Below, piece after piece: positions 50,148-52,839 of a DNA stretch of 64,000 nt. Both the position numbers and the translations under genes were made by a program. Below the pieces are notes generated by a model. The model was not told where the DNA came from, searched no databases, and worked only from the letters and a program-made list of their open reading frames with translations. Location: the NCBI GenBank assembly GCA_902630355.1, contig CACOUL010000010.1:567-64566 (forward strand), given 5' to 3'. Numbering within the stretch: the first letter of the stretch is position 1; each line of letters opens with the position of its first letter. This DNA comes from Planctomycetaceae bacterium. GTDB taxonomy: Bacteria; Planctomycetota; Planctomycetia; Pirellulales; UBA7805.

Positions 50148-50864
50148 ATGTGTGGACGCTTTACACTCAAAACACCAATCGAATCGATTCGTCGCCAAAT
50201 GAATCTGTTCGAGATTAGGCCACAAGCGCCCCAAGGGTTCCACTCGATACCCCGCTACAATATTTGCCCGAGCGAGGAGATTCTGGTGCTCCGCAAAGGA
50301 CTCCGGAGTCCCGCAGATACAGCCCGAGCACCGTCCGTAGAATTCCTCACCATGCAGTGGGGATTCTCTGTAGAAAAGACGAAACGGATCGTGAATACGC
50401 GAGCGGAAACACTCCTTGATCACGAGAGACCACCGCGCGGGGAGCCCGCCCGGCGGTGTGTGATTGTTGCCGACGGGTACTACGAGTGGAAGCAGGAGGG
50501 GGCCCATAAAATCCCCTATTATTTTTTCCGTCCACAACAAAAAATATTCGGCATGGCCGGATTGTGGCGAACCCGCAAAGACCACGCAGAAAATAGAACC
50601 GAGTCCTGTACCATTCTTACCGTTCAGGCAAATGAAAAGGTCGGCAAAATCCATGAGAGAATGCCCGCGCTTCTTGATATTGAACAAACTTTGCGTTGGC
50701 TTGAAGTGGACTTACGGCGTGAATCGCTCCAAGACTTACTCATTCCTGCACCGAACGCTTGGCTCCAATCGCATCCCGTACATCACCGCATCAATCGGGT
50801 TGGAATCGATGACCCGCAATGCGTCAAACCGGTTTACTACGACCAACAAAAAAGTCTGTTTTAG
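50148..50864 (+). CDS. SOS-response-associated peptidase (SRAP/YedK family, abasic-site sensor)
   Basis: N-terminal MCGRF (catalytic Cys2), then NTRAET, DGYYEW, ILT..AN motifs. Confidence 0.88.
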   Translation: MCGRFTLKTPIESIRRQMNLFEIRPQAPQGFHSIPRYNICPSEEILVLRKGLRSPADTARAPSVEFLTMQWGFSVEKTKRIVNTRAETLLDHERPPRGEPARRCVIVADGYYEWKQEGAHKIPYYFFRPQQKIFGMAGLWRTRKDHAENRTESCTILTVQANEKVGKIHERMPALLDIEQTLRWLEVDLRRESLQDLLIPAPNAWLQSHPVHHRINRVGIDDPQCVKPVYYDQQKSLF

Positions 50865-51074
50865 GCGGCCTTCTGTAGGGCAAATCGTGCGCCAAAGAAA
50901 AACACAAAATTGATTTTATCCAAATCAATTCTTGTTGAAGCAGAATTATCAATTTGCCGATGTAAGGATAGTGTCTCTAAAAATTCATCCAAAAATAATT
51001 TTCTCAAATATATTCCACTTGATCTGTGGTTAAAATTTACGTATTGAACTACGCAATCTTCGGTTTCCAATTCC

Positions 51075-51236
51075 GTCGGAGGGACTAACCAAAAGCGTTG
51101 GCTTGGGATTCATAAAAGCGGTGCAAAGCACTGCCGGTCCCCGCCATTCTCGCAGCGACCTCCACCGTCGCAATGGGCCGAAGATCAATGAGGCTGCGGT
51201 TTTCTCCAAGGAGAAGGCCGGCGGCCTTTTTTATTT
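51075..51236 (+). ncRNA. Structured intergenic RNA candidate (cobalamin-riboswitch-like sequence blocks) ending in an intrinsic terminator
   Basis: Hairpins at 51118..51134 and 51155..51171. Blocks GGTGCAAAGC, GGTCCCCGCCATTCT and GGGCCGAAGATC appear in the order of the conserved cobalamin-riboswitch core blocks. Terminator at 51212..51236. No credible plus-strand ORF downstream. Confidence 0.3.
51212..51236 (+). terminator. Intrinsic terminator (plus strand)
   Basis: AGAAGGCC-ggc-GGCCTTTT stem followed by TTTTATTT. Confidence 0.55.
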
Positions 51237-51300
51237 GATACATCCATTTATGGAGTATCGTCGCACTTCAGATCGCATCGTTGGCAATTGTGGAAAAGAA

Positions 51301-51678
51301 TCACGCCAGTGGGTCTTGTTGATGGTTACCAGGACATTGTGAAATGATGGCCCGTATTTGCGACAAAAATTCTCCGCGGGCGTAGACTTGATCACAACCA
51401 ACATCCTGTGCAAGTTTTATTTTCTGAGTATGCACATGAGGCACAAACGCAATCAGGGTGACGTTTATTCCTTGTGATCGTATCCAGTTTGCCACACACT
51501 CGATATCGAGTCCGGGTAGCATGAGATCGATCAACACAACATCGGCTGGCAACTCTTTCCAGGAGGATTGCAGATTTTCAAGAGAGAGAACCTGCTCTAA
51601 AGAACAGTTGAGGTCCCTCACAATACCATCGACGCGCGGGACAATCATGAGGTCGTGTGTGAGGAGGGCGAACTTCAT
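51301..51678 (-). CDS. Single-domain response-regulator receiver-like protein (atypical)
   Basis: VVLIDLMLPGLD (phospho-acceptor Asp context) is present. The N-terminal acidic pair, the conserved Thr/Ser and the KP motif are not evident. Start moved to ATG 51678. Confidence 0.55.
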   Translation of the reverse strand: MKFALLTHDLMIVPRVDGIVRDLNCSLEQVLSLENLQSSWKELPADVVLIDLMLPGLDIECVANWIRSQGINVTLIAFVPHVHTQKIKLAQDVGCDQVYARGEFLSQIRAIISQCPGNHQQDPLA

Positions 51679-51828: not shown

Positions 51829-52839
51829 ATGGTTATGGAAAAAATTCAGGACATTCTCGACTACTTTCCGGTCGATTGTGTCTCAACGCAAGTGGAGAGT
51901 TTAGGGTCGGCTGGAGGTTTCAGCGGTGCTCTGCTCTGGAAAGTCCATGCTCCCCGGGGGCCGCTTTGTCTGCGACGTTGGCCGCGCGAACATCCGTCGC
52001 AAAAACGACTCGAGTTTATTCATGGATTACTGGGGCATGTGGCAACCAATGGATGCCCTATCGTGCCAGTGCCCGTTCATTTGCGATCCAGTACACCGTC
52101 GACGTTTGTGAAACAGGATGGCTATTTATGGGAGCTTGCGCCTTGGATGCCGGGAGAGGCCAATTTCGAACAAAATCCATCGACTGAAAAATTGTGTAAC
52201 GCGGCACGCGCGCTCGCCTCTTTTCATCATGCCTCGTCCGACTACCGGAGACCGACCGCATCGAGTGGGCCCGCTCCGGGGGTTTGCGAGCGGTTGGAAA
52301 AAACGCGCATTTGGCGACAGAATGATTTGGAGCGAATCGATGCCCAGATCAAAACAACAAGCACGCTTGCTTCCCCAATCGATATCGGTCAATCGCAAAT
52401 GATTCTGAATCATGCAAAAAATACGATTGAGGCAGTCGAGCGCGAGCTATCGGCGCTTTCCACATTGGACGTACCGATTCAATCTTGTATTCGCGACGTT
52501 TGGGAGCAGCACCTTTTGTTTTCGGGAGACGAAGTCACCGGACTGGTCGATTTTGGTGCGGCCCGCCCCGATACTGTGGTAGTGGACATCGTACGACTTT
52601 TAGGGAGCCTTGCCATCAACGACCAGCAATTGTGGAAAATAGGCCTTCAGGCGTACGAATCATTGCGTCCACTATCGTCGGCCGAGCGATCCCTGCTCCC
52701 GGCACTCGACCGTAGCGCCATACTGCTTTCGGGGTTGAATTGGCTTCGCTGGATTTTTCTTGAAAATCGCAACTTCAGCAATTGGTCTGCAGTCACTTCG
52801 CGTTTGAACAAAATTATTACACGTATTGAAAATAGTTAA
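51829..52839 (+). CDS. Phosphotransferase-family (APH/CotS/homoserine-kinase-II-like) protein kinase fold
   Basis: LWKV...LRRWP N-lobe; IRDVWEQHLLF...GLVDFGAA catalytic/DFG-like segment. ATG 51829 preferred over TTG 51775. Confidence 0.65.
   Translation: MVMEKIQDILDYFPVDCVSTQVESLGSAGGFSGALLWKVHAPRGPLCLRRWPREHPSQKRLEFIHGLLGHVATNGCPIVPVPVHLRSSTPSTFVKQDGYLWELAPWMPGEANFEQNPSTEKLCNAARALASFHHASSDYRRPTASSGPAPGVCERLEKTRIWRQNDLERIDAQIKTTSTLASPIDIGQSQMILNHAKNTIEAVERELSALSTLDVPIQSCIRDVWEQHLLFSGDEVTGLVDFGAARPDTVVVDIVRLLGSLAINDQQLWKIGLQAYESLRPLSSAERSLLPALDRSAILLSGLNWLRWIFLENRNFSNWSAVTSRLNKIITRIENS

Follow-up and report, generated by a model that had tools for sequence, protein, structure and literature searches.

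The gap between a SRAP gene and a minus-strand receiver-like open reading frame (ORF) in a 64,000-nucleotide (nt) stretch of planctomycete DNA (contig CACOUL010000010.1 of assembly GCA_902630355.1, positions 567 to 64,566; hereafter the window) carries the gene of a non-coding RNA. In two orders the gene stands on its own, occurs once per genome, encodes a strongly structured product and is under purifying selection. The RNA, with a length of about 185-195 nt, is neither a riboswitch leader nor an antisense controller of the receiver gene. Positions 51031-51236 of the plus strand appear to form a self-contained transcription unit, to judge from the sequence, and the product is classed here as a new family among lineage-restricted orphan structured small RNAs (sRNAs), without a match in Rfam 15. 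The original prediction for this DNA had placed at 51075-51300 an orphan structured RNA that ends in an intrinsic terminator of its own and had likened it to a cobalamin riboswitch with a functional link to the receiver-like gene. The orphan RNA stands, as its fold covaries and a terminator follows it in at least 51 of 59 homologous loci, while the cobalamin resemblance and the link to the receiver gene do not. A structured RNA does occupy the predicted span, but it starts further upstream, with helix P1 running from 51056.

The structure is visible in the window and in its relatives. The 186 nt at 51060-51245 fold with -69.6 kcal/mol (z = -2.53 versus dinucleotide shuffles), and the minimum-energy fold holds both of the hairpins that had been predicted, a closing stem near 51060/51181 and the long terminator hairpin. 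With the gap as a BLAST query against 41 related genomes, 30 give a match, which is the only one in all but one genome; the conserved part covers window positions 51031/51070-51235 and reaches many families of the order. The loci were aligned with MAFFT, a covariance model (R1) was built, and the 60 R1 hits were realigned to give alignment A3. Pair statistics were taken over 36 modelled pairs in 59 distinct homologues, with 3' partners slid by 1-3 columns and 500 shuffles as controls. In this model-fitted alignment, standard pairs fill 90.8% of cells versus 32-42% in the slid controls, and compensatory changes on both sides are found at 33 of the 36 pairs. Cells with changes on both sides number 378, compared to 103 +/- 11 in the shuffles, and the covariation score is 0.515, compared to at most 0.128 in the slid controls; none of the 500 shuffles reaches the observed value on any measure. 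The same helices top an unguided all-against-all covariation ranking and can be seen in the plain MAFFT alignment. The two plus-strand hairpins first proposed at 51118-51134 and 51155-51171 are real and represent helices P4 and P5, kept by compensatory change in the 59 homologues. The related genomes are not independent of each other, the counts come from samples, and the E-values of the home-made models are rough.

The modelled fold comprises 39 pairs, a closing stem of 12-15 base pairs (bp) and about 35 invariant unpaired nucleotides in the junction and loops (Table 1). Helices P1, P3 and P4 are free in sequence and fixed in length. All 11 modelled P1 pairs change on both sides (one pair, for example, is CG in 30 cases, UA in 21 and GC in 4), and the inner part, P1c, pairs in 90.3% of cells and shows a small number of compensatory changes (TGT/ACA, GTT/AAC). 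An inward extension of P1 may also come from pairing of CC at 51067-51068 with GG at 51175-51176. The joining strand J1/2, together with TT at 51071-51072, makes up the nearly invariant UUCCGNCGGAGG; mean identity is 0.92 over its TTCCGTCGGAGG portion, and its GGA is not invariant. Within J1/2, a 3-bp mini-hairpin (UCC-GNC-GGA) pairs in 94% of cells with zero compensatory change. A pseudoknot between the GGAGG of J1/2 and the P5 loop was scored in two registers, neither of which exceeds the shuffles or has covariation support. In the long arm, the P4 loop is variable (identity 0.45), and the bulge-P2a segment TTCTCGCAG has an identity of 0.92. The P5 stem and loop are nearly invariant (99.7% of cells pair, identity 0.90); the stem is swapped whole to GCAGT/ACTGC (GCAGU/ACUGC in the RNA) in two genomes, and the loop reads CCCACC, GCAUCCA or UCUGCC in some lineages.

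Table 1. Features of the RNA locus and its neighbours in the window; helix rows name the paired positions.
Feature	Position	Strand	Remarks
Conserved core, 137 nt, three-way junction	51054..51190	+	Extent of the covariance-model match, R1 136.2 bits
P1, 5' strand ATCTTCGG	51056..51063	+	Pairs with 51178-51185
P1c (inner P1), ATT	51070..51072	+	Pairs with AAT 51172-51174
J1/2 joining strand CCGTCGGAGGGACTAACCAAAA	51073..51094	+	Unpaired in the model
Long arm P2a-P2b-P3-P4	51095..51153	+	About 59 nt; length and shape conserved, sequence free
P2a, GCG/CGC	51095-97 with 51151-53	+	Every pair changes on both sides
P2b	51099-51102 with 51143-51146	+	Every pair changes on both sides
P3	51105-51110 with 51136-51141	+	Every pair changes on both sides
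P4 hairpin, GCGGTGC-AAA-GCACTGC	51118..51134	+	Stem 51118-51124 with 51128-51134; 6 of 7 pairs change on both sides
Bulge TTCT (UUCU)	51147-51150	+	Conserved, beside the junction
P5 hairpin, GCGAC-CTCCACC-GTCGC	51155..51171	+	Stem 51155-51159 with 51167-51171; C-rich loop (C)UCCACC
P1, 3' strand CCGAAGAT	51178..51185	+	Covaries with 51056-51063; mean identity to window letters 0.48
Linker between core and terminator	51186-51191	+	
Intrinsic terminator	51192..51236	+	Long hairpin ~51192-51226, then TTTTTTATTT; U6 at 51227-51232
TTGATC box	51019-51024	+	
-10-like hexamer TAAAAT, probable promoter element	51031..51036	+	Start of genus-level DNA conservation
Second -10-like box, TATTGA	51042-51047	+	
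SRAP gene	50148-50864		Pfam PF02586, E 1.7e-49
Receiver-like ORF	51301-51678	minus	PF00072 (Response_reg) match weak: E 9.6e-4, 19.7 bits, below the 30.2-bit cut-off
Divergent gene, APH-family phosphotransferase (kinase)	51835-52839		E 8.2e-18

A small protein gene is ruled out as the source of this conservation, as no reading frame is kept: each of the six frames has stops in 29-47 of 54 homologues. Insertions and deletions are not multiples of three, and the substitutions keep base pairs.

The RNA gene is nearly universal in two groups of planctomycetes. Across 150 high-quality genomes, sampled evenly over the class, R1 detects a single copy in 35 of the 37 genomes of the same order and one copy in 34 of the 36 genomes of family f24, compared to none in the 77 genomes of the other families of the class, f94-f100 (including 0/36 for f95 and 0/31 for f96). 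Outside the class, none of about 140 genomes of a phylum-wide sample has a hit, and only the two groups are positive in this sample. A second model, R2, built from the 60 hits, recovers three of five earlier misses in the order. The R2 hits in other orders (E = 0.07-0.9) were judged false and not distant homologues; they are GC-rich stretches without a terminator, two of them in repeated sequence. Among the genomes of family f96, two distant loci of one genome (G209; L071:1400-1640 and L073:1440-1680) share a GC-rich, near-identical stretch of more than 250 nt that appears to be coding; this is probably a repeated or mobile gene, and it gave rise to the weak false R2 hits there. A search of 185,579 species genomes for the exact 25-26-nt core around P5, TCTCGCAGCGAC(N)TCCACCGTCGCAA, gives 68 stretches, and the carriers of these are all labelled Planctomycetota, Pirellulales, Pirellula sp., Planctomycetales or Planctomycetaceae; one of them, Maioricimonas sp. 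JC845, is cultured. To judge from these names, the order of the window is evidently Pirellulales and family f24 is evidently Planctomycetaceae.

The synteny of the homologous loci separates the RNA from the genes around it. Flanking genes are kept only within genera and are unrelated in other genera. Even in the window's own genus, two loci (L007 and L028) are without the SRAP gene, and L028 is also without the receiver gene, which argues against the proposed functional link to that gene. As originally stated, no plus-strand gene follows the RNA in the window's genome. Of 60 loci, 32 have the next gene 3' of the RNA on the minus strand and 28 have it on the plus strand, so the strand of the downstream gene is effectively random. 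A cis-regulatory leader and an antisense partner of the receiver gene are both ruled out by this synteny. Because the neighbours differ between genera, the downstream strand is nearly random, a terminator follows the core and no reading frame is kept, the RNA gene is considered independent.

Two further features of the flanks are noted. In five genera (loci L018, L019, L023, L026 and L048), the RNA is preceded on the same strand by a gene for a secreted 3-keto-disaccharide hydrolase (PF06439), which is probably a coincidence. The nearest relative of the window, genome G001, is 94% identical over the whole gap, and matches in the other genus members start at 50991 or 51031; the AT-rich stretch at 50880-51030, with its AATTGATTT/AAATCAATT inverted repeat, is aligned only in G001.

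The conserved unit is bounded by plausible signals for transcription. BLAST matches to relatives of the genus begin at query position 167, which is window position 51031 and the first letter of the -10-like hexamer TAAAAT. The transcript is predicted to start near this box. In 33 of the 59 homologous loci, a TAnAAT-type box (TACAAT, TAGAAT, TAAAAT or TATAAT) precedes the model start by no more than about 50 nt, mostly by 13-26 nt. The promoter scan found no full sigma-70 consensus at the locus, and planctomycete promoters are poorly defined. In both orders, a TTGAYN or (G)CCGAT box often stands only 5-7 nt before the TAnAAT box (e.g., TTGATC-N6-TAAAAT in the window, CCGATC-N6-TACAAT and TTGACG-N5-TACAAT elsewhere). 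This spacing is unusual and far too short for a -35/-10 pair, and GCCGAT is present in 12 of 59 upstream regions, compared to about 3 expected.

At the 3' end, the terminator originally placed at 51212-51236 is real and ends where predicted, but its stem is longer, beginning near 51192. The hairpin is GC-rich (about -23.8 kcal/mol) and abuts the T-run, although a simple consensus scan did not list it. A strong hairpin with a T-run lies 3' of the core in the great majority of homologous loci, as counted above, with stem sequences that are unrelated. Inspection by eye revealed no alternative (antiterminator) pairing of the terminator with the P1 3' strand, and the terminator sequence varies independently. 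The terminator would end the transcript constitutively.

The reading favored here, tentatively and at a little less than an even chance, is that the RNA is a trans-acting folded scaffold that binds one conserved cellular partner. The invariant junction and the P5 surface would bind this partner, most likely a protein or ribonucleoprotein, and the covarying helices would only hold the binding surface in place. The reading rests on three features: helices P1, P3 and P4 vary in sequence but not in length, some 35 nucleotides of the junction and loops are invariant, and the P5 stem is itself conserved in sequence. Such a pattern is typical of RNAs with a folded surface for a partner to bind, or with a pocket. 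The partner may belong to the translation apparatus, as the two invariant elements resemble Shine-Dalgarno (GGAGG) and anti-Shine-Dalgarno (CCUCC) sequences. Hfq (PF17209) is not found in 41 genomes of the class, which was counted in favor of a scaffold over a simple pairing RNA.

Several points weigh against the scaffold. The synteny of the homologous loci reveals no conserved neighboring protein gene that would point to a partner, and the partner is putative. The expression, ends and abundance of the RNA are predicted from its DNA. The pair counts lean somewhat to structure, since alignment A3 was fitted to the model. The unpaired C-rich loop is also typical of the seed of a base-pairing sRNA, and so large a number of conserved nucleotides in the junction is just as characteristic of aptamers that bind a ligand and of ribozymes.

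The RNA chaperones of the class do not help to choose a partner. Every one of the 151 Planctomycetia genomes sampled carries CsrA (PF02599), with 2-17 matches each; the window's own genome (G000, 70% complete) has 6 copies, one of them at G000:C6:53276-53431. Because CsrA is universal and multi-copy, it cannot be tied to the RNA by distribution. A phyletic link between the RNA and a chaperone was rejected accordingly, as CsrA does not discriminate and Hfq is found in none of the 41 genomes sampled for it.

The best surviving alternative, though an unlikely one, is a base-pairing regulatory sRNA in which the P5 loop, (C)CUCCACC, is an anti-Shine-Dalgarno-like seed. The loop would pair with ribosome-binding sites (GGAGG or GGUGGAG) of mRNAs and block translation without Hfq. 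This fits a near-invariant loop that is shown on a stable 5-bp stem and a stand-alone gene with its own terminator. The RsaE/RoxS family of Firmicutes and the alpha-r14/CcsR 'cuckoo' RNAs of Alphaproteobacteria use C-rich loops, and Hfq is undetected in the 41 genomes, as in lineages that rely on sRNAs of this kind. Like these families, the new RNA has an unpaired CCUCC/UCCACC in a hairpin loop. RsaE/RoxS and alpha-r14/CcsR RNAs are short, simple hairpins, often in several copies, and regulatory RNAs with such seeds are usually built of two or three plain hairpins. By contrast, the new RNA has one such loop in a large three-way junction and one copy per genome. A seed alone needs no 12-15-bp closing stem, 59-nt arm or set of about 35 invariant junction nucleotides, and the loop itself varies in some lineages.

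Ranked below the base-pairing sRNA, and more doubtful, is an orphan ligand-sensing RNA or ribozyme in which the invariant junction is a pocket or active site. Such an RNA would work in trans or else decide whether transcription runs past its own terminator, and the original ligand-controlled antisense idea is a form of this proposal. A three-way junction in which many unpaired nucleotides are invariant while the helices covary freely is what aptamers and ribozymes usually look like, and the terminator lies directly 3' of the core. Against this stand the single copy per genome and the lack of a recurring downstream gene, the next gene being convergent in 32 of 60 loci. No antiterminator pairing is seen, and the long terminator stems are unrelated from one genus to the next. 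A direct repeat, CCGUCG, in J1/2 and the P5 3' strand could form an alternative helix; it is not kept where J1/2 varies. The RNA also resembles no riboswitch or ribozyme of Rfam. The resulting order of preference is a scaffold, then a base-pairing sRNA, then a ligand sensor or ribozyme.

Far less probable than any of these is a housekeeping RNA in disguise, namely either the 6S RNA that most Pirellulales seem to lack or a divergent 5S or signal recognition particle (SRP) RNA. The likeness to 6S RNA (RF00013) is one of general form, as both are single-copy, about 180 nt long, have ends paired in a long closing stem and are widely kept in a lineage. RF00013 also fails in most Pirellulales, with matches in 4 of 37 genomes, only one of the four being over the family cut-off. 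The passage on 6S RNA in the Thermogutta paper (PMC5673643) reports none in that genus and cites a survey that found none in Pirellula or Rhodopirellula. What decides the matter is that Planctomycetaceae have both RNAs at separate loci: the new RNA is in 34 of 36 genomes and an RF00013 match (E<=0.01) is at another locus in 31 of 36, most of these matches being over the family cut-off. In genome G112, for example, the new RNA is at 1,574,399 and the 6S match at 939,246. The 6S identity is rejected on this ground. The new RNA is moreover a branched three-way junction with an invariant hairpin and not a rod with a central bubble. An SRP RNA or 5S rRNA identity is likewise rejected, as RF00169 and RF00001 are found at other loci in related genomes. 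None of RF00013, RF00001 and RF00169 matches at the RNA locus in the Rfam scans.

The survey of RF00013 has a result of its own. Over the class-wide sample, matches (e.g., G218:C41:6026-6234 and G020:C49:163620-163843) are common in Planctomycetaceae, f95 (29/36) and f96 (28/31) and rare and weak in Pirellulales. Most Pirellulales have therefore either lost 6S RNA or carry a strongly diverged form of it, consistent with what the passage in PMC5673643 reports.

The chance that the RNA is a divergent cobalamin (AdoCbl/MeCbl) riboswitch is negligible. The proposal arose from the string resemblance of three short blocks to riboswitch sequences. Rfam 15 was scanned over 50800-51500 at E<=10, over 51040-51250 (211 nt) at E<=10 with the laxest filters, and over the whole window at gathering thresholds. 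None of the three scans gives a match to the cobalamin models (RF00174, AdoCbl-variant), and no Rfam 15 family of substance lies over the element, the best being terminator-shaped fragments of 12-14 bits. The three blocks are present as strings in the window, but their mean identity in relatives is 0.70, 0.70 and 0.48, versus 0.90-0.92 for the truly conserved segments (the J1/2 core, bulge-P2a and P5). Block 1 consists of helix P4 with its variable loop; block 2 takes in the 3' strands of both P3 and P2b and continues into the UUCU bulge, which is conserved. The third block (51175-51186), which had been taken for a B12 box, corresponds to the 3' strand of P1, which covaries freely and has the identity of 0.48.

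Compared to the cobalamin riboswitch, the new RNA has another junction topology, with a three-way junction that lacks a B12 box or kissing loop, and blocks that are helix strands changing freely in relatives. Like RF00174 and RNAs of the EutX/Rli55 type, which are B12-riboswitch-controlled sRNAs, it is a structured, GC-rich element with an intrinsic terminator at its 3' end, and in the window's genome it has no coding gene behind it. Unlike them, it is not associated with B12-related or ethanolamine genes; no B12-related gene adjoins the RNA in any genus examined. The lesson is that short string likenesses to riboswitch 'boxes' mislead when the strings are strands of covarying helices.

The closest company of the RNA is found among orphan motifs discovered by comparative genomics. 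Lineage-restricted motifs of this kind include Acido-Lenti-1, Bacteroidales-1, Chlorobi-1 and Flavo-1 (Weinberg et al. 2010, PMC2864571). Like these, the new RNA is stand-alone, has no conserved neighbor, carries its own terminator, is confined to one lineage and is supported by covariation. It differs from them in that it is unrelated in sequence and fold, more elaborate, and nearly universal and single-copy in two orders. The sole planctomycete-dominated motif met with in the literature searched is Rhodopirellula-1, a single bulged hairpin with 36 predicted copies in Rhodopirellula baltica, located 5' of short genes (PMC2864571, Additional file 1). Identity with Rhodopirellula-1 is rejected, as the latter is an unrelated multi-copy hairpin and the new RNA a single-copy three-way junction. 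No prior description of the RNA was found in the full-text literature on planctomycete non-coding RNAs, by searches for the invariant strings or in large discovery papers, a scope outside which most subscription journals fall.

A bolder and rather improbable extension of these findings is that the RNA represents an unrecognized functional class, near-essential in Pirellulales and Planctomycetaceae, whether as a ribonucleoprotein component, a translation regulator, a metabolite sensor acting in trans or a ribozyme. If this is true, the invariant junction and P5 surface would do a job outside any known bacterial RNA class. The RNA gene is a testable target, being short, with predictable ends and clear invariant surfaces to mutate. 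The RNA biology of planctomycetes is almost unexplored, and a single-copy RNA with an elaborate covarying fold, retained by nearly all genomes of two large orders, almost certainly has an important role.

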